A stretch of DNA of 64,000 nt from an uncultured virus (IMG/VR IMGVR_UViG_3300012147_000007) (lineage: Duplodnaviria; Heunggongvirae; Uroviricota; Caudoviricetes). Below are positions 3,125-46,697 of this stretch, piece by piece. The DNA lies in the IMG/VR virus record IMGVR_UViG_3300012147_000007, positions 1-64,000 of that record, one strand, 5' to 3'. Below the pieces are notes generated by a model. The model had not been told where the DNA came from and ran no database searches. It saw only the letters and a program-made list of their open reading frames with translations. A program made the position numbers and the translations under genes. Positions within the stretch are counted from its first letter, which is position 1. Every line of letters starts with the position of its first letter.

Positions 3125-3201
3125 ATTGTAAATATATAAAAATAATATTTAATATCAAATTAATAACCTTTTATTTACGCAGGGACTTATATTATTAATT
3201 G

Positions 3202-3275
3202 TGGGCCCCATCAGACTCGAACTGATAACCTTTTCATTATGAGTGAAATACACTAACCAATTGTGTTAGAGGCCC
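3202..3275 (-). tRNA. tRNA-Ile2-type (CAT)
   Basis: GGGCCTC acceptor, CT-CAT-AA loop; Ile2 rather than Met inferred from acceptor stem. Confidence 0.8.
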
Positions 3276-3285
3276 TTAAATTTTG

Positions 3286-3362
3286 TCGGGAAGGTGAGAT
3301 TCGAACTCACATGTAACCAATTACCCTTTCTACAAGATATAAGCTTGAGGGGATACAACCCG
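3286..3362 (-). ncRNA. D-armless tRNA-like RNA, anticodon TAT (Ile)
   Basis: CGGGTTG-TA-TCCCC-TCAAG-CTTATAT-CTTGT, 21-nt variable region, canonical T arm. Confidence 0.7.
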
Positions 3363-3404
3363 ATACATATGTCTATTTCACTTTCCATTTTATTTATTTT
3401 TTTG

Positions 3405-3502
3405 TGGACAATACGAGAATCGAACTCGTATCTCCAGTTTGCGCTATCCTGTGTGGTTGCACTTCATAGCCTTCACCGATTTACCAATTAATCTAATTGC
3501 CC
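3405..3502 (-). ncRNA. tRNA-like RNA with G3:U70/A73 and expanded anticodon domain
   Basis: GGGCAAT/ATTGTCC-A, normal D and T arms, ~40-nt insert in place of anticodon arm. Confidence 0.7.
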
Positions 3503-3507
3503 TTTTG

Positions 3508-3577
3508 TTGGTGTAGAGGGACTCAAACCCCCGACCCCCTGAATTACAGGTGCTCTAATCAACTGAGCTATACACCG
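3508..3577 (-). ncRNA. tRNA-like RNA with shortened anticodon arm
   Basis: C1:A72 mismatch, normal D/T arms, 13-nt arm CCTG-TAATT-CAGG. Confidence 0.7.
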
Positions 3578-3621
3578 AACTCTTCAATCGCCTTAAGTCG
3601 ATTTCCGAGCTACTTAAGTAG

Positions 3622-3704
3622 TAGTGACGGTGGGAATTGAACCCACTTTGTACTTACGTACCCACGTTATCAGCGTGGTGCCTAAACCATCCAGCCCCGT
3701 CACT
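3622..3704 (-). tRNA. tRNA-Ile (GAT) with long variable arm
   Basis: CCACG-CTGATAA-CGTGG, variable arm GTAC-GTAA-GTAC. Confidence 0.85.
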
Positions 3705-3715
3705 ATAAAAACTCT

Positions 3716-3952
3716 TTAGAAGAGTCTTTCTATTTCAATCCAAGTATAGGAATAAACTCCATTTTGAACTGGTATTCTTTTGCTAATATCCGCTCTTAAC
3801 ACTTTGAACATTGGATACTCTACCAAAAATCTTTCAAGCGCCTCGCTTGGCGTTATCATGTCTCCATCAAAATCAACAAGCCCGCCAACTACTTCCCACT
3901 TGTGTGATTGCCTCCATGTAGTGCAAATACTAAATAAAATATACTCTTCCAT
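3716..3952 (-). CDS. hypothetical protein
   Basis: 78-aa ORF. Confidence 0.6.
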   Translation of the reverse strand: MEEYILFSICTTWRQSHKWEVVGGLVDFDGDMITPSEALERFLVEYPMFKVLRADISKRIPVQNGVYSYTWIEIERLF

Positions 3953-3959
3953 TGCTCTA

Positions 3960-4730
3960 TTAATTCTTTACTTCATCTAAAATATTATATTTTAAACACC
4001 ATTTTCTAACTGTATTATCAGAAACTGCATACTTATTTCCAACCCTTGTAAAATATTTAAATTTTTTAAAATCATCCAATAGAACCATTTTGTTTGGTAT
4101 TCTGCTTTTTCTTTTACAATTATATTCTTTGCACCACTTTTTAATTACACCCAATGAAACCCCTAAGTGTTTAGATAATTCTAAATCACTTTTAAATTTC
4201 GAAAATACCAACACAAATTCTTCTTTATTTATTTTTGGTAAAATATTTATTTCACTAATTACCTTTCCAAGTTTTTCATATTCTCTTTTTATTTTATGAC
4301 ATCTTTTATAATTACCACCTTTAGGGGTTAATCCAGTTTGTATTAATGACTTTCTCATATTCCAGTCATTAATCAACAAATATTCTAATAATTTTTCATT
4401 ACTAATTTTTTCTTTTTTTATTTTATTTCTACCCCTCCAATTACTTGTTAAACCATGGCAGTTTGGACATAGACACTCAAGGTTTGTTTTTTTATTATTT
4501 GTATTATCCCCATCAATGTGATTAATTTCCAAAGGTATATTACACCCTTGCCATTTATTTAATTTACATTTTTTACAAGTTCTTTTATTTTCATATATAA
4601 TATATTCTCTAATCATATCCCAAGATAAATCATCAAAATTTTTACTTAAAATATATTCTTCACGTTTTTTTCTTTCTTCTAAATTATATAACTCCTTTTT
4701 TTCACTAATTCTTAACCACTGACTTGACAT
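3960..4730 (-). CDS. HNH endonuclease with C-terminal HTH
   Basis: LEINHIDGDNTNN..NLECLCPNCH. Confidence 0.9.
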   Translation of the reverse strand: MSSQWLRISEKKELYNLEERKKREEYILSKNFDDLSWDMIREYIIYENKRTCKKCKLNKWQGCNIPLEINHIDGDNTNNKKTNLECLCPNCHGLTSNWRGRNKIKKEKISNEKLLEYLLINDWNMRKSLIQTGLTPKGGNYKRCHKIKREYEKLGKVISEINILPKINKEEFVLVFSKFKSDLELSKHLGVSLGVIKKWCKEYNCKRKSRIPNKMVLLDDFKKFKYFTRVGNKYAVSDNTVRKWCLKYNILDEVKN

Positions 4731-4816
4731 AATATTTGTTTTTTATTATAAATATTATGAAAAAAGTAAAAGTTCGATTTTTTGTTAAATTAATTCGAAC
4801 TTTTACTTTAAATTAG

Positions 4817-4889
4817 TCTCCCCGATAGGACTTGAACCTATTCTCTTTCGATTAAAAGTCGAAGGCTTCCCCTGTTAAGCTACGAGGAG
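4817..4889 (-). tRNA. tRNA-Lys (TTT)
   Basis: TTCGA-CTTTTAA-TCGAA, full cloverleaf. Confidence 0.9.
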
Positions 4890-4905
4890 GTTTTTAATTC
4901 TTTCG

Positions 4906-4977
4906 TGAACCCACCGAGAGTCGAACTCGGTTCCATAGATTAAGAGTCTATAGCATCACCACTAATGCTTTGGGTCC
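4906..4977 (-). tRNA. tRNA-Lys (CTT)
   Basis: ATAGA-CTCTTAA-TCTAT. Confidence 0.9.
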
Positions 4978-5027
4978 AGAATATGTTTATTATCAAGGCC
5001 TGCAACTCTATTGCTTGAGCAAGCCTC

Positions 5028-5063
5028 TTAACGTTTCTTATATTTCATCTTTTTATATTTCAT
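5028..5063 (-). CDS. Lys-rich mini-ORF upstream of tRNA-Lys pair
   Basis: MKYKKMKYKKR* followed by hairpin GAGGCTTGC...GCAGGCCTT. Confidence 0.5.
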   Translation of the reverse strand: MKYKKMKYKKR

Positions 5064-5078
5064 TTTCTTTCTTTTTTG

Positions 5079-5151
5079 AGCTGTTGACAGGGGTCGAACC
5101 TGCGACATCTTCATTACAAGTGAAGTGCTCTACCAACTGAGCTACAACAGC
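5079..5151 (-). tRNA. tRNA-Thr (TGT)
   Basis: CTTCA-CTTGTAA-TGAAG. Confidence 0.92.
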
Positions 5152-5169
5152 ATATTATTATTTTTCTTG

Positions 5170-5242
5170 AGCTGGAGATGGGTCTCGAACCCACAGCCTA
5201 CTGCTTACAAAACAGTCGCACAACCAATCGTGCTCCTCCAGC
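5170..5242 (-). tRNA. tRNA-Thr (TGT)
   Basis: ACTGT-TTTGTAA-GCAGT. Confidence 0.88.
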
Positions 5243-5248
5243 ATTTTA

Positions 5249-5929
5249 TTACCAAGATTTTCCTTCTTTATAATTTTTTCTTCTTCTCTTTCTTCTTCTA
5301 CTATACCTACCATCCCCTTCTGATATAGCTTTCCAACTTTTAGTTAATGCATGATGATTTGGGCATAAAATCTGCAAATTATCTACTTTATTATTATCTG
5401 GATTACAATCTACATGATGCAACTCCAGCGGTATTTTACCTGAATATTTATTTACCTCTTTCCATCCGCACTCCATGCATTTTTCTCCATGTATAGATAT
5501 AAGATAAGTCTTATAAATTTTGGTATGCTCAGTAGTATATTCTCCTTTTTCTATTTTATCAAAAATCTCTTTTCTTTGAAATTCTTGTTGACACTTATTA
5601 TTACAATATTTCTTATTTCCATCTATCTGCTCTTTACAGTTTGTACAATTATTAAACTTTTTTCTTTTTCTATTGTTATAACTCACCCCACATGATTTGC
5701 AACAAAACTTTTTTGGATTAGACTTATTAACTTCAAACCCACATTTACACTCTAAACAACTCCTATCCTCACTACTTGAATTATGTTCTGAAAATTTAAC
5801 TCCAGATTTATTCATTTTATTCCTAACAGAATCAACACTCCTATTTAATTCTTCAGCTATATGATGAAATCTAAACCCATCTATAACAAGCTTTTTAGCT
5901 TTTTCAAACTCTTCTTTGCTCCATTTCAT
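5249..5929 (-). CDS. HNH endonuclease
   Basis: LELHHVDCNPDNN..NLQILCPNHH. Confidence 0.9.
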   Translation of the reverse strand: MKWSKEEFEKAKKLVIDGFRFHHIAEELNRSVDSVRNKMNKSGVKFSEHNSSSEDRSCLECKCGFEVNKSNPKKFCCKSCGVSYNNRKRKKFNNCTNCKEQIDGNKKYCNNKCQQEFQRKEIFDKIEKGEYTTEHTKIYKTYLISIHGEKCMECGWKEVNKYSGKIPLELHHVDCNPDNNKVDNLQILCPNHHALTKSWKAISEGDGRYSRRRKRRRKNYKEGKSW

Positions 5930-6009
5930 ATCTATCTATTTTATAATAAATAGTTAAAAATAATGAGCTTTCAAAATTATTCGAAAACTATACCACTTTC
6001 ATATACCAG

Positions 6010-6083
6010 AGCCTTGTATGGGACTCGAACCCATCTTTCAGACTTACCGAATCTGTACATCAATCCAACAATGCTTACAAGGC
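6010..6083 (-). tRNA. tRNA-Thr (GGT)
   Basis: CAGAT-TCGGTAA-GTCTG (C33). Confidence 0.85.
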
Positions 6084-6109
6084 ATATTTCAAATAACTTT
6101 TACTTTTTG

Positions 6110-6195
6110 GGTGAAAGATGGGTTCTGACCCCACGACCTCCCGATTCACAGTCGGGCGCTCTACGACTTTCGTCTCCAGCTGAGCTACAATCACC
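6110..6195 (-). tRNA. tRNA-His (GTG), D-loop hairpin insertion
   Basis: G-1/C73, CCCGA-CTGTGAA-TCGGG, GAC-GAAA-GTC in D loop, T loop GTCAGAA. Confidence 0.8.
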
Positions 6196-6232
6196 ATATT
6201 AAATTAAAAAGAACTTTTTCTTTTTTTTGTTG

Positions 6233-6306
6233 AGGACCCACCGAGACTCGAACTCGAAATCGCAGATTAACAGTCTGAAGTGATAACCAATTTCACCATA
6301 GGTCCT
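6233..6306 (-). tRNA. tRNA-Asn (GTT)
   Basis: CT-GTT-AA loop, cloverleaf. Confidence 0.88.
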
Positions 6307-6315
6307 TAATTTATT

Positions 6316-6774
6316 TTATTTACTCTTTTCTATTTCTTCATGTATTTCAGCATGACAATTAGAACACACTAAAATACATTTATCTAATTCTTTTTTTACT
6401 TTTTCCCAAGACCTCGTATAACCTTTGTGACCTATACCAAATTCTTTTTCATTTGGGTTTAAATGATGAAACTCTAAAGCTCTACTACATTTATTATACC
6501 CACACCTTTCACAACAACCACCTTTATACTCAATTGACAATTGCTTAACCTTTTTCCTTCTATTTTGAACTGCTTCAACATTTTTCTTTCTTTTATCTTC
6601 TTTTTGAAGGGGTGATAAAGTTCTTTTACTTACATATTCTAACACTGTAGTTTTACTCACTCCAAACTCTTTAGCTACAATCCTTGATGATTTTCCAGAA
6701 TTATACTCTTTTTTAATTAATTTAATTAGTTCTTCACTAATTTTTTTTCCTTTTTTACTTTTTAATTCGTCCAT
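6316..6774 (-). CDS. HNH endonuclease with N-terminal HTH
   Basis: YKGGCCERCGY..ALEFHH..KCILVCSNCH. Confidence 0.9.
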   Translation of the reverse strand: MDELKSKKGKKISEELIKLIKKEYNSGKSSRIVAKEFGVSKTTVLEYVSKRTLSPLQKEDKRKKNVEAVQNRRKKVKQLSIEYKGGCCERCGYNKCSRALEFHHLNPNEKEFGIGHKGYTRSWEKVKKELDKCILVCSNCHAEIHEEIEKSK

Positions 6775-6828
6775 AATATTAACTTTGTTTGTTAAAAAAT
6801 AGGACTAAATTTTTCAAAGCATCACTTG

Positions 6829-6900
6829 CGACTCCAACGGGGCTCGAACCCATAACAAATGATTAACAGTCAAACGTGATACCAATTTCACCATAGAGTC
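6829..6900 (-). tRNA. tRNA-Asn (GTT)
   Basis: GACTCTA/TGGAGTC-G, CT-GTT-AA. Confidence 0.88.
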
Positions 6901-6949
6901 ATATTTCAAATTTTAAGATTCTGAACGTTTCTCAAAAACCTTTGGACAC

Positions 6950-6978
6950 AAAAAAAGCCCGACCTATTGGCCGAGCTT
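6950..6978 (-). terminator. Attenuator terminator of Asn/His/Thr/Lys/Ile leader
   Basis: AAGCTCGGCC-AATA-GGTCGGGCTT plus T run. Confidence 0.9.
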
Positions 6979-7004
6979 CTGTATATTTTAAATTGTACTT
7001 GTGA

Positions 7005-7115
7005 TTAAATTAGTTCATCACTTCCATTTTTGCTTATACATAGCTCGACCATACCATTTTGCTTTTTATTGCAAATCGTATTATTAATCGTTGTATGTAT
7101 ATTTAATGAGTACAT
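7005..7115 (-). CDS. Leader peptide (N/I/H/T/K block), putative attenuator
   Basis: MYSLNIHTTINNTICNKKQNGMVELCISKNGSDELI*; TGGTCGAGCTATGTATA complementary to TATACAGAAGCTCGGCCA. Confidence 0.85.
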   Translation of the reverse strand: MYSLNIHTTINNTICNKKQNGMVELCISKNGSDELI

Positions 7116-7160
7116 TGTGTTTCTTTTTTCTAAATAGTAATTAAAAATTCTTTTTTTGTT

Positions 7161-7232
7161 TTCTTCTACGCAAATATATAACTTTTGTTCTATTAAATCC
7201 AAATCTTTTTTAAAGAAATATTGAAAATAATT
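7161..7232 (-). promoter_or_regulatory. Promoter module shared with 21560-21632
   Basis: Near-identical ~70-bp block containing GAACA-N-TATATTTGCGTAGA. Confidence 0.75.
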
Positions 7233-7294
7233 CGTAACTGCTTGATAATCAAATAAAAAGGGAGTAAACTTTTTTTCACTCCCTTTCAATTATT

Positions 7295-7594
7295 TTACCT
7301 GTTTGGCTGTGGTCTACGTGTCCACGTTCCATTTTCAAGTCTGTAAACTCCTTGTTTAACCCATTTCTCCCAGCCGTTAGATTTGATTTTGAAGTGGTCC
7401 TCCAAGTGTGATACAGTAAAATTCCAGGATTCGAATCGACCTAAGCCTGATTCATCTCTCGCTATCCTGATAGCCTCTTGTTCCGATTTCTCTCTTGTCC
7501 AAGCTTCTGGTGTAGAAGTTTCGATGTAGAAAGAGGGGGCACGATGGCCAGCGCTGTGCTGGGTATCCACCCTCCATAATCTTAGTTTATTCAT
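7295..7594 (-). CDS. hypothetical protein
   Basis: 99-aa ORF. Confidence 0.65.
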   Translation of the reverse strand: MNKLRLWRVDTQHSAGHRAPSFYIETSTPEAWTREKSEQEAIRIARDESGLGRFESWNFTVSHLEDHFKIKSNGWEKWVKQGVYRLENGTWTRRPQPNR

Positions 7595-7671
7595 AATATG
7601 AATTTAATCCATTGACTAAATCCAAGTTATGTGCTATCGAGGTAATATGTTTTTGTGTTCTTCATGCGTTT

Positions 7672-8406
7672 TTAAATAAGTATTTTTTTTGTAATCTCAT
7701 CCCAACGTGCCTCAAGCATTTTGCAATAAGCAATTTTATTTAGTCCATATGCACTAAGACCAAATGCGTCATTCATTTCTATAAGAAGCGTTTTTCCATC
7801 TGCAGTAACTCCGAAATCAATTGAGTAAGCCATTGGCTGAACTGCATAATCTCTTATTGCAGACTCAATAATACTATAATCTGGAGATATAGTAAAGTCC
7901 CCAGTATAATTCTTGCTCCCTATAAGACCTCCATTTAATACAAAACATCTATACTCTGTGACAAAATCAACACATTCTGACACTATCAAAGGAGTGTTCG
8001 GATTGCATCTAAGCTTCGCTTGCAACAAGTCATGCTTTGATTTAACTACATAACCAGTAAACAACTTATGCTGATATAGCGGCTTTATAAAGAAAGGAAA
8101 AGCTCCTTCTGTTTTAGAATATTCTTCAACATCTTTAAATTCCATTTCAAAAACTTTTCTTCCCATATATTCTGGAAGGTGGTGATGCGGATTATCTATC
8201 CTTGGCTGAAGTATGTGAAGCTCATCAAATATTTTTCTGATTGTATTGATTCCTCCTACAACAATTGGGTTTGTACTATGATTAATTTCCTCTGAATTTT
8301 CAAAACCAATCACTCTATATCCCATTTGCCCAAAACCAGCAGCGGCTTCATAACAGTTAACGCTTAAGAATTTATTCCCAGCTCTTTGTATATAGACTTC
8401 TCTCAT
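7672..8406 (-). CDS. ATP-grasp protein (DUF4343/R2K-like)
   Basis: FFIKP..KLFTG, EYRCFV, YSIDFG...LLIEMND. Confidence 0.85.
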   Translation of the reverse strand: MREVYIQRAGNKFLSVNCYEAAAGFGQMGYRVIGFENSEEINHSTNPIVVGGINTIRKIFDELHILQPRIDNPHHHLPEYMGRKVFEMEFKDVEEYSKTEGAFPFFIKPLYQHKLFTGYVVKSKHDLLQAKLRCNPNTPLIVSECVDFVTEYRCFVLNGGLIGSKNYTGDFTISPDYSIIESAIRDYAVQPMAYSIDFGVTADGKTLLIEMNDAFGLSAYGLNKIAYCKMLEARWDEITKKILI

Positions 8407-8474
8407 TATTCAAATTTAGTAAAAAAAGGGGGAAACTAAAATATTAATTTCCCCTTTCTCTTATAAGATGGTTT

Positions 8475-8855
8475 TTAGAACGGTAAATCATCCGCAGCTT
8501 GAGCTCCTGGAGCTGCTACTGGCGTTTGGTTTACTGGGGCCTCTGTTGGCGCAGAAGCTGCCGCAGGAACACCTGCTTCAATTCTCCACATGTCAAGAGA
8601 GTTCCAATATCTTACGTTACCTTGAGCATCAGGTTTCCCTTCTCTACCTCTAAGGTTGTAGTGTACTGTTACATCACTTCCTACTGTGAATGTGCTCAAC
8701 GCATCGCACTTATCGTTTGTTGCTTGAACTGTGATATGTTGTGGGTATTGACTATCTGCATCAATAGTTACAACAAATTCTCTTACTTTAAAAGTATCAG
8801 AAATGTTTTTCACTTCGTTTAATACTTTAATTTTTCCTGTTAATTCATTAGACAT
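8475..8855 (-). CDS. DUF3127 family (OB-fold, SSB-like)
   Basis: FKVREFVV..QYPQ..YNLRGRE..YWNSLDMWRI, DDLPF tail. Confidence 0.85.
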   Translation of the reverse strand: MSNELTGKIKVLNEVKNISDTFKVREFVVTIDADSQYPQHITVQATNDKCDALSTFTVGSDVTVHYNLRGREGKPDAQGNVRYWNSLDMWRIEAGVPAAASAPTEAPVNQTPVAAPGAQAADDLPF

Positions 8856-8929
8856 AATCTTTCTTTTTTATTTTCTTTAAATTATTATATTTTAATATAC
8901 AGAATTCCAGTACTAAAATCAAGTATTTT

Positions 8930-9160
8930 TTACTTTTTTTTCACTTTTTTTTCTATTCCAAAATCATAATTATACCACGCCCTCTCGTGAAGGTAATATA
9001 AAACAAATTTTATGATTACATCTGCAGCTCCAATAGACAAACCAGCCTTAATATCTCCCGTAACTCCCCAAGCAAGAAAAAAACTTGTCAAGGATGCAAT
9101 TATTCTCCAAGTTATAGCTTTGAATAAATGTCTTTTCCTATCTATATTTGGTTTAGTCAT
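8930..9160 (-). CDS. DUF2061 family membrane protein
   Basis: RHLFKAITWRII...YYLHERAW. Confidence 0.85.
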   Translation of the reverse strand: MTKPNIDRKRHLFKAITWRIIASLTSFFLAWGVTGDIKAGLSIGAADVIIKFVLYYLHERAWYNYDFGIEKKVKKK

Positions 9161-11173: not shown

Positions 11174-12110
11174 AGCCTGAGTTTACAGCATTTATTAGCG
11201 TCCTTTAATGACCTTACCCACATCATCTTGCGGTTAATCAATGTATCCACGCACCCTTTCAGGTGGTATACGCCAGTCTCGATACCTATGGGGTATCATT
11301 CCTATCGTGCAATCTAACTCTGTATTTTCCACCTACACTATCTTGCCAGACATATGCGAGCTTTCGTTACAATCGACACCCACCTTGCGAGGATGAATGA
11401 CTCCCTGATTCTGCCGAAGCATCCAGGGTCTGAGAGACCTTTTAATATACACGCCCATGAGACTTTCACTTTTTTTCTGTTTATAGTAAAAACCAGCCAT
11501 GCCAAGGCTAATATATACTGCATGAGATATACAGTACGAAGAGACGTGCCCACAGGAGTGGTTTCATAACTTTTTGGTTACAAAATGCCACACGCCTCTC
11601 TGTTAGTCTATGCTGACCAACAATTAAACCCGAATTACTTTCTACGAATAGTTAAGTAACCAAATCCAAATGAGATGAAGCCCTTGCGTTTCTTACACGC
11701 TCGAACAACACAACTAAGCTTTTCCTTTTCATCAGCCGAAGCCAACTTTTTTTGCAAAATTTCTAATGCTCAACTACCATTTTTAATCTCATGATAGTTT
11801 ACCTTGTCCAGGTAAGTACTCACTTATTGCATAGGTGTCCAACAGAATAAATTCTGAAGGCGAGGGTGACACCCCCTTTTATAGCTTGTTACCAAACTTT
11901 ATCTTCCCACAAGGGGCTTGCAATGATTTTCATCACCACGAGACTCTACACAGCCTCAAAATGATTGTTATTTGAATTGTAAAAGCTGGTTCATGTTACA
12001 TAACCAATTTAAAAGCGAAGGACTCTGCTATATTTCATACAGTTGAATGTTTGTCCCATTCTCACTTTCCTCACTTACTCTTACTGTCGAATGGACCTAA
12101 ACATTTAGAC
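11174..12110 (-). ncRNA. Large structured ncRNA, GOLLD-like
   Basis: ~940 nt without credible ORF, raised GC, many GNRA/UUCG hairpins, 3' end CTGTAAACTCAGGC, next to tRNA-like genes; family call from recalled motifs. Confidence 0.65.
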
Positions 12111-13076: not shown

Positions 13077-13176
13077 TGGCGAAGGGAGGATTCGAAACCT
13101 CCGACCCCCAATGCTGTCCATTCTTTCACAAGAACAACTAACACACTGGTGCTCTGACCAACTGAGCTACCTCGCC
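13077..13176 (-). ncRNA. Met-like tRNA body with elongated anticodon arm
   Basis: GGCGAGG/CTTCGCC-A; ~42-nt arm capped by TTCTT-GTGA-AAGAA. Confidence 0.75.
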
Positions 13177-21254: not shown

Positions 21255-21331
21255 ATATTTTACTTTAATTTCCAAGATGTCAATTTTTTACTTTCGAAAG
21301 ACTCAGTGACGTTTCACAAAAGTCTATAAAC

Positions 21332-21511: not shown

Positions 21512-21646
21512 TTGAATTTGTTTCTCTTTTTTCTAAATAGCAGAAAATTTCTTTTTCCGCTTTCTTCTACGCAAATATATAACATTTGTTCTATTAAATC
21601 CAAATCTTTTTTAAAGAAATATTGAAAATAATTTTGAACCTCTTGA

Positions 21647-37056: not shown

Positions 37057-37258
37057 CTTATTTCTAAATATAGGAAAAAAAGTTTATTTCTTCTTTCCTC
37101 GTGTTTTATTTTTATTATCGTCTTTACCTTTTTCTTTTTTAAGTTGTTTCATCCAACCTTCTAAGGCTTCTAAATTTGCGTGTGTGCTATTTACTGACAT
37201 CTAATTGTTTTCTTCTACGCAAATCTATAACAAATGTTTCAATAAATCAAATCTTTTT

Positions 37259-37528
37259 TTATTTTTTTTCAATCGACCTCATAGTTCCAAACCACTCAGC
37301 CCTTGATACTACTATAAAAAACGTAGGATTGTCATCATAAAACTTTTTTATAATTTGACAAATTTCAAACTCTTCTTTATCTTGAAAATAGGAAATAGCC
37401 TCATCAACAATAAAAGTTGGAGTTAATTCATTCGCAATTCTTTTACTAATGTCTTTTGCAACACTTGCAACACAATTGTAGAATAATATATCTTCCTTTT
37501 TAATATTTGATTTGCCCCTGATTCTCAT
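37259..37528 (-). CDS. hypothetical protein
   Basis: 89-aa ORF. Confidence 0.7.
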   Translation of the reverse strand: MRIRGKSNIKKEDILFYNCVASVAKDISKRIANELTPTFIVDEAISYFQDKEEFEICQIIKKFYDDNPTFFIVVSRAEWFGTMRSIEKK

Positions 37529-43326: not shown

Positions 43327-43474
43327 TGGCACAGGGTGGGCTCGAACCAACGACCTCTGGGTTACGGTGAGTGAATCTTTTTCACTTTACACATACTACT
43401 CGCCTTATTACGTAATTCACGCTTTTGCTCGGTAACCTTATCTCCAGCGCTCTAACCAACTGAGCTACTACGCC
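43327..43474 (-). ncRNA. Met-like tRNA body with ~75-nt insert in anticodon loop
   Basis: GGCGTAG/CTGTGCC-A, canonical D and T arms, insert closed by GGTTAC/GTAACC. Confidence 0.75.
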
Positions 43475-43856: not shown

Positions 43857-43865
43857 TATGTTTTG

Positions 43866-43937
43866 TGGTCCATATCGGGCTCGAACCGACAACCTGCGGG
43901 GTTAGAATCCGCTGCTCTACCATTGAGCTAATAGACC
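43866..43937 (-). tRNA. Amber suppressor tRNA (CTA)
   Basis: Canonical cloverleaf; GCGGA-TT-CTA-AC-CCCGC. Confidence 0.85.
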
Positions 43938-46564: not shown

Positions 46565-46697
46565 AACTTGTTTTTATAATTTGTTTCTTTCAATTATATA
46601 TACGCAAATATAAGACAAAATGTTCTATAAATGCAAATCTTTTTTAATCTTTTTTTACAAATCCCTTATTTTACTGGGACTGTAGAGTAAAATTTTT

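Follow-up and report, generated by a model that had tools for sequence, protein, structure and literature searches.

The window analysed here comprises 64,000 nucleotides and is the first 64 kb of a 117-kb contig of a giant phage from lake water, with a genome of 34% G+C; the same phage is also found on a 195-kb viral contig, and its FtsH-like protein on a contig of up to 364 kb.

Organisation of the module A locus

On the minus strand of this window, a short open reading frame (ORF) and an intrinsic terminator precede an array of tRNA genes, and we refer to this arrangement as module A. All module A features are on the minus strand and they are given below in the direction of transcription, together with the genes that flank them.

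Ending at 7295, minus: ORF of 99 codons, upstream of the module A promoter
7287-7256, minus: terminator-like hairpin after the 99-codon ORF
7156..7212, minus: shared promoter block, with the -33 element TTTG at 7203-7200, a 21-nt spacer and the -7 box TAtaTTTG at 7178-7171
7123..7137, minus: conserved block just 5' of the leader start codon, from the alignment of modules A, B and C
7115-7005, minus: leader ORF of 36 codons plus TAA (ATG at 7115, TAA at 7007-7005), with the putative translation MYSLNIHTTINNTICNKKQNGMVELCISKNGSDELI
7062..7103, minus: candidate regulatory run, codons 5-18, AAT ATA CAT ACA ACG ATT AAT AAT ACG ATT TGC AAT AAA AAG
7084..7100, minus: candidate region 1, which would pair with region 2 if the run is ribosome-free, from the full-length minimum-energy fold
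7035..7051, minus: region 2, putative 5' strand of the antiterminator, codons 22-27, 15-17 nt
6968..6985, minus: region 3, putative 3' strand of the antiterminator, overlapping the 5' arm of the terminator
6950..6980, minus: intrinsic terminator, stem 6980-6953, 11-12 bp with 6 G-C pairs, loop AATA, T7
6901..6949, minus: spacer of 49 nt from the terminator to the first tRNA
6936-6933 (TTTG) and 6914-6907 (AAAATTTG), minus: near-consensus promoter-like site in the spacer, 7/8 match
3201..6900, minus: tRNA array, presumed to be regulated
6900-6828, minus: tRNA-Asn GTT, head of the array
6774-6316, minus: HNH endonuclease ORF between tRNA genes, resembling HNH genes of many unrelated phages
6305-6232, minus: tRNA-Asn GTT
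6194-6110, minus: tRNA-His GTG with a small hairpin insert in the D loop, found by Rfam only, its anticodon read from the loop
Within 6083-5078, minus: tRNA-Thr GGT, then two tRNA-Thr TGT
5929-5249, minus: HNH-like ORF between the Thr GGT and Thr TGT genes
4977-4905, minus: tRNA-Lys CTT
4889-4816, minus: tRNA-Lys TTT
3704-3621, minus: tRNA-Ile GAT
3577-3508 and 3502-3405, minus: two odd tRNA-like genes
3275-3201, minus: CAT tRNA, candidate reader of ATA
1872-1702, minus: two Cys GCA genes, beyond another gene and a terminator-like site

The promoter block is present in four copies in the window (7156-7212, 21557-21613, 37205-37261 and 46590-46646; repeat family D3) and heads module A as well as two further modules, B and C. 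It fits the Bacteroidetes consensus TTTG/TANNTTTG with a G at -5, as that consensus is given in PMC6847099, and on this basis we place a putative transcription start near 7166. The ATG at 7115 is the first after the promoter, with none between this start site and 7115. A short ORF behind a promoter is a mark of leader-peptide attenuators, and the 36 codons that follow the TTTG/TAnnTTTG promoter at 7203-7171 would correspond to it. The stretch upstream of the leader start is A-rich with an A at -3; in Flavobacterium, initiation is favoured by an A at -3 and by A-rich leaders, according to PMC6847099. A longer, TTG-started frame of 94 amino acids was considered as a gene and rejected, because it has no Pfam match and because its start falls inside the upstream terminator hairpin (7287-7256), before the promoter.

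The sequence-only reading of the locus had named two Lys tRNAs, TTT and CTT, and an Ile GAT and a CAT tRNA as lying downstream of the leader, and all four genes are present at the positions listed above. The promoter-like site in the 49-nt spacer suggests that there may be a second, unregulated start in front of the array, which therefore may not depend on readthrough alone. A block, TTTTG.GAAACGT., is located between the terminator and the first tRNA at 6915-6938 and 21295-21318 of the window and at about 2660-2690 of record L036 (all minus strand), corresponding to modules A and B and to a single module from a phage whose FtsH-like gene has 42% identity. Each of the three spacers has AAATAT as its last bases, immediately ahead of the tRNA. 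Insert-bearing tRNA genes occur at 6110-6194, 3405-3502, 13077-13176 and 43327-43474 (minus strand) and, apart from the His GTG gene, are 98-148 nt long; they are Rfam finds that aragorn misses or calls intron-bearing.

Codon run and predicted competing helices of module A

Codons 5-18 of the leader translate as NIHTTINNTICNKK, and thirteen of the fourteen residues are N, I, H, T or K, as had been claimed from the sequence, with both AAA and AAG and both ATA and ATT among the codons. All fourteen codons are served by downstream tRNAs if Cys is counted, and thirteen otherwise. Over codons 2-18, 14 of 17 residues belong to the set of amino acids of the array against an expected fraction of 0.33 (binomial P 4.9e-05). 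A stop-free stretch of 14 codons with at least 13 N, I, H, T or K is encountered only once in the six frames of the 64-kb window, and twenty dinucleotide shuffles of the window contain on average 0.15 such places.

The terminator has a calculated energy of -16.7 kcal/mol and its stem begins 25-26 nt past the leader stop codon. Between the segment 7051-7037 and the terminator's 5' arm (6982-6969), the predicted pairing has an energy of -17.5 kcal/mol, compared to -7.1 ± 1.8 kcal/mol for the shuffled null (z -5.9), and none of 500 dinucleotide shuffles paired as well. The long antiterminator that had been proposed for 7051-7035 is thus supported by the calculation. The duplex between regions 1 and 2 reaches -9.0 kcal/mol (z -1.26) and 0.108 of shuffles are as good, which is not significant; this helix is seen in the full-length minimum-energy fold and is outcompeted by the pairing of regions 2 and 3 in the nascent fold. 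Module A combines a short ORF, a cognate codon run, an intrinsic terminator before tRNA genes and a predicted antiterminator that shares a strand with the terminator, four of the features that define a leader-peptide attenuator.

We folded the nascent RNA as a transcript that ended just before the 3' arm of the terminator and carried a ribosome with a realistic footprint. With the A-site at any of codons 8-18, nine of the eleven bases of the terminator arm are predicted to pair with region 2, whereas five do so with the A-site at codon 20 and none with the A-site at codons 24-28. Folding with a 5' mask gives a probability of 0.81 that the arm is paired for positions up to codon 17 and of 0.13 at codon 20. 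Co-transcriptional folding had been suggested as a check of the attenuator, and in these models the antiterminator is kept only with the A-site in the run and is lost once the ribosome passes its end. Nascent RNA that is left untranslated is also predicted to be antiterminated (P 0.81).

The situation at the end of the ORF is less simple. The sequence-only reading had cautioned that region 2 lies about ten codons before the stop, which makes it less obvious how a terminating ribosome would block it, and this caution was well founded, as region 2 spans codons 22-27 and the stop is codon 37, leaving a gap of 30 nt. The rule of trp-type attenuators, by which a ribosome on the stop codon masks region 2, fails here since region 2 is outside the footprint with the A-site at codons 32-37. 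The terminating ribosome does not cover region 2 and the blocking must therefore be steric or kinetic. With the A-site at codons 32-37, the antiterminator re-forms if helices are allowed across the ribosome; if they are disallowed, region 2 folds onto region 1 (7100-7084), leaving the terminator arm unpaired. From these models we infer that the terminating ribosome could act as a wedge between regions 2 and 3 while regions 1 and 2 refold behind it. Full-length minimum-energy folding was also tried as a test of the switch. In such folds the terminator is kept under every ribosome mask in modules B, C, G1 and G2, under all masks but one in module Cp, and mostly in module G3, and this retention in most modules implies that the switch has to be kinetic. 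We rejected full-length folding as the wrong model for a kinetic decision.

Related modules in this and other giant phages

Two paralogous modules are present in the same genome, each ahead of a different set of tRNA genes.

21613-21330, minus: module B, promoter, leader and terminator, preceding Pro, Asp, Pro, Asp, Ala, Tyr, Gly, Gly
Within 21613-21330, minus: module B leader MEKVYTYNENTSINPMGYMGAPAADDCSRDGIVLHKLKV, with the stretch MEKVYTYNENTSINPMGYMGAPAADD...
37261-36905, minus: module C, promoter, leader and terminator, preceding Ser (five genes), Cys, Arg TCT, Arg CCT, Trp
Within 37261-36905, minus: module C leader MKTVITNRWSRWSSSSNRATERTLVCQNVM, with the stretch MKTVITNRWSRWSSSSNR...

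For modules B and C, the pairing between leader and terminator arm is not above chance, with 0.678 and 0.398 of shuffles as good, respectively. Between the promoter and the leader of module C there is a small ORF, MSVNSTHANLEALEGWMKQ..., at 37084-37200 (minus strand), and in a relative (record L027, 13072-13161) it is conserved as ...LECLEGWIRQ....

Orthologues of module C were reached through the adjoining FtsH-like gene on one viral and eight metagenome contigs, at 44-72% protein identity. All of their leaders have the form MKT..N(R/I)WS(S)RWSS.., and the W/S/R run is kept in composition and not in order; their terminator stems differ by paired changes, and the tRNA genes that follow are Ser/Arg/Trp. 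Four modules ahead of different arrays were found in a 326-kb phage, where the FtsH-like gene shows 42% identity. We also reached four more giant-phage records through the ATP-grasp gene that adjoins module A, and applied an automatic screen for a terminator within 450 nt of a tRNA together with an ORF of at least 15 codons that ends 10-50 nt before the stem; this identified 12 further modules in three of the four records. One of these 12, from a 360-kb phage, is the positional counterpart of module A, likewise located after the ATP-grasp gene; it precedes an array of His, Trp, Ser, Asn, Arg and Ile tRNAs, and its leader is altered to match this different array.

326-kb phage: leader QPQPQHQHQ, before Pro, Pro, His, Gln, His
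326-kb phage: leader YKKYKNY, before Tyr and three Lys
326-kb phage: leader MEAMLWSVAEAVEVDD, before Ala, Glu, Leu, Val, Trp, Asp, Met
326-kb phage: long N/T/I/S/R/L/G/F leader, before 21 tRNA genes for the same amino acids
Screen-found: leader LSLSLSLSLSLS, before Leu, Ser, Ser, Ser, Leu, Leu
Screen-found: leader NNNNQQQYQQNNY, before three Asn, Gln, Tyr, Gln, Gln
Screen-found: leader ITRIIRIRRR, before Ile and three Arg
Screen-found: leader HIHKHQIWH, before Trp/His
360-kb phage, counterpart of module A: leader ISIHINSIMNWRRNSS

In total, 29 modules were found in 15 records, 26 of them in 14 other giant-phage records in addition to A, B and C. The device is not universal, since in record G006 (L140-L143) no leader was found at any of the nine array heads that were read; there, TTGACA/TATAAT-like promoters stand directly before the arrays and no terminator intervenes. 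Other searches extended the set no further. ATP-grasp relatives with 79-82% identity are on metagenome contigs; alignment of the ATP-grasp protein against genome contigs returned relatives of 31-40% identity in Firmicutes MAGs and one 56-residue partial match at 52%, which were left unused, and a search with the single protein returned the same phage only. A distant DNA search of 6000-9000 against GenBank phages matched the HNH gene and nothing else. Scans of viral contigs with the promoter pattern gave the same phage, one close strain, and unrelated phages that have a generic promoter but no leaders, and the contigs from four DNA runs that cover 6600-7700 were identical or derived from the module B promoter, with no informative variants. 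A search for RNA runs covering 5200-9000 returned none.

The match between leaders and arrays was assessed with 20 candidate ORFs (7 + 13, from five records). For 17 of these the own array ranked first, and for module A it was the best of the 20; the exceptions were one ORF at rank 3, one with a match limited to six residues and one overlapping decoy ORF. None of 200,000 random reassignments of leaders to arrays reached the observed sum of 68.9, the largest random sum being 36.3, and for the first seven modules the true assignment alone, one of 5040 permutations, reached the observed match. Of the 72 leader codons that belong to six-fold families, 62 can be read by the anticodons of the own array, compared to 46.9 expected, and several leaders sample each isoacceptor family of their array.

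The modules also share their architecture. Just after the run lies a stretch that is complementary to the terminator's 5' arm, with p <= 0.05 in 6/8, 2/9 and 8/12 modules (16 of 29 overall), the orthologue set being above 0.05 in seven of its nine modules. In all modules the predicted pairing of the arm is 0.6-0.9 with the A-site in or before the run and is calculated to drop after the ribosome passes. Stop codon and stem are 20-41 nt apart in each of the 29 modules, and for 26 the range narrows to 20-31 nt. In eight modules only 7-19 nt separate the terminator from the first tRNA, too little for a promoter to fit in between, so that these arrays are reachable by readthrough only. A Cys codon occurs a few codons after the run in 24 of the 29 leaders, often as TATGT, and in several it lies inside or beside region 2; it could reflect a structural constraint or a pause signal.

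A candidate attenuator of tRNA genes

Taken together, we consider it likely that module A is a ribosome-mediated leader-peptide transcription attenuator that gates the phage tRNA array through stall-dependent readthrough. This interpretation, which had been put forward without database searches, gains support from the comparison, namely the paralogues, the 26 further modules and the absence of an equally good match in 200,000 reassignments. The start site, the translation of the ORF, the stalling and both outcomes of the switch are the parts that we infer. In such a scheme, a strong promoter of host type would start the transcript and its first AUG would open a 36-codon test ORF, in which codons 5-18 would sample the codons read by the downstream tRNAs (Asn, Ile, His, Thr, Lys and perhaps Cys). 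When the charged tRNAs are scarce, the ribosome would stall in the run and leave region 2 (7051-7035) free to pair with region 3 (6985-6968) as it leaves the polymerase, so that no terminator forms and the tRNA genes are transcribed. When decoding is fast, the ribosome would unwind region 2 and come to rest on the stop codon, which separates regions 2 and 3; region 2 would then refold with region 1 behind it, the terminator (6980-6953) would form and the array would be off. Since the new tRNAs would relieve the stall, supply would follow demand.

A leader that senses decoding could also act after transcription, through the processing or stability of the precursor or through an RNA or peptide in trans like rnTrpL/peTrpL, the terminator being constitutive and leaky. 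Trans roles of attenuator-derived RNAs and peptides have been published (PMC6614838, PMC7298713), and several modules have no significant antiterminator; against this, 16 of the 29 modules have a significant complementary segment, whose position tracks the end of the run, and the leader peptides are conserved across arrays in composition and not in sequence, and we regard action after transcription as unlikely. The polarity might instead be reversed, such that efficient translation of the leader favours readthrough because the coupled ribosome hinders the terminator as in pyrBI, in a positive feedback. The preference of full-length folds for the terminator in most modules and the tightly conserved stop-to-stem spacing of 20-41 nt would agree with this, and RNA that is untranslated or slowly translated is not the sole state that needs explanation. 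However, a ribosome positioned on the stop codon extends only some 9-12 nt past it, too short a distance to cover a hairpin whose stem is 20-41 nt away, and an arm-complementary segment inside the ORF just after the run fits stall-dependent antitermination; a reversed polarity thus seems very unlikely.

We find it hardly credible that the arrangement is a coincidence, in which tRNA genes with their own promoters merely follow a common small gene, or a non-coding spacer, that carries a terminator. In its favour, a genome this rich in AT (34% G+C) commonly encodes N, I, K and T, there is a promoter-like site after the module A terminator, and one related record has leaderless arrays. Nevertheless, the run is the single one of its kind in the six frames of the window, the match recurs in 29 modules and was not equalled in any of the 200,000 reassignments of the 20-ORF test, and eight modules have no room for a separate promoter.

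Multivalent attenuators are known from enterobacteria, the ilvGMEDA leader having Ile, Leu and Val codons and the thr leader Thr and Ile codons. The phage modules resemble these in their promoter, short ORF, codon run for more than one amino acid, alternative hairpins with a strand in common, and intrinsic terminator. They differ in that the genes they would regulate encode tRNAs and not biosynthetic enzymes, so that the product itself would relieve the signal, and in that their leaders sample up to 13 kinds of amino acids. Moreover, region 2 of the phage leaders falls within the ORF and precedes the stop by 4-10 codons, no significant helix joins regions 1 and 2, and the element is phage-borne with signals of Bacteroidota type. 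The selection of the antiterminator over the terminator by a ribosome stalled at cognate codons would be shared with trpL, hisL, pheL (PMC3082878) and leuL. The trp leader has its region 2 covered by the terminating ribosome, and its untranslated RNA is terminated by way of the helix of regions 1 and 2, whereas in module A the stop is 30 nt past region 2 and the untranslated nascent RNA is predicted to be antiterminated. T-box riboswitches likewise use a terminator and an antiterminator to report on tRNA charging, but they bind uncharged tRNA directly, without an ORF, and control synthetase and amino-acid genes, unlike the ORF before tRNA genes of module A. The T-box family (RF00230) has no match in the window at the gathering score and none at E <= 10 in 6880-7300. 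No Rfam leader family is among the 33 gathering-level matches in the window; Leu_leader (RF00512, 25.5 bits against a cut-off of 50) and Thr_leader (RF00506, 15.3 against 55) are both below threshold. Leader-peptide attenuation has long been known for amino-acid genes, and a search of open-access full text and bioRxiv found no published account of leader-peptide control with tRNA genes as the target.

If the proposed attenuation is true, the regulated product would be the sensed molecule and the circuit a direct supply-on-demand loop, which would explain the timing and dosing of tRNA genes in giant phages that carry 30-60 of them. The leaders would provide a prediction, readable from sequence, of the tRNAs that a phage expects to run short, and would constitute natural, modular devices that gauge decoding speed for as many as 13 amino acids simultaneously; as a recurring design, with 29 modules in 15 records, they can be tested with short synthetic constructs. 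The tRNA sets of phages have been proposed to counter host defences that cut tRNAs (PMC10264068); this idea offers a reason for having phage tRNAs on demand, and it differs from the present proposal in that it appears to concern tRNA sequences and not a sensor of their transcription. We suggest, as a tentative idea to which we give somewhat less than an even chance, that in giant phages with Bacteroidota-like hosts every tRNA array has a separate sensor matched to its codons, often to each isoacceptor family, and that these sensors together detect and repair an attack on the tRNA pool. An array would be on when the host's tRNAs for its codons become scarce, as might follow from host shut-off or from defence nucleases that cut anticodons.

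Several other elements were observed along the window. Positions 1-420, at the start of the contig, contain a tandem repeat with a 60-nt period in five overlapping copies (family D1). A tRNA with the anticodon CTA, a reader of TAG, is encoded at 43865-43937 (minus strand) and is also present in records L038, L040, L042-L045 and L053, which hints at recoding of TAG; none of the 29 leaders ends in TAG. Between tRNA blocks, at 11174-11600 (minus strand), there is a full-length match to GOLLD RNA (RF02032) with 169 bits against a cut-off of 150.
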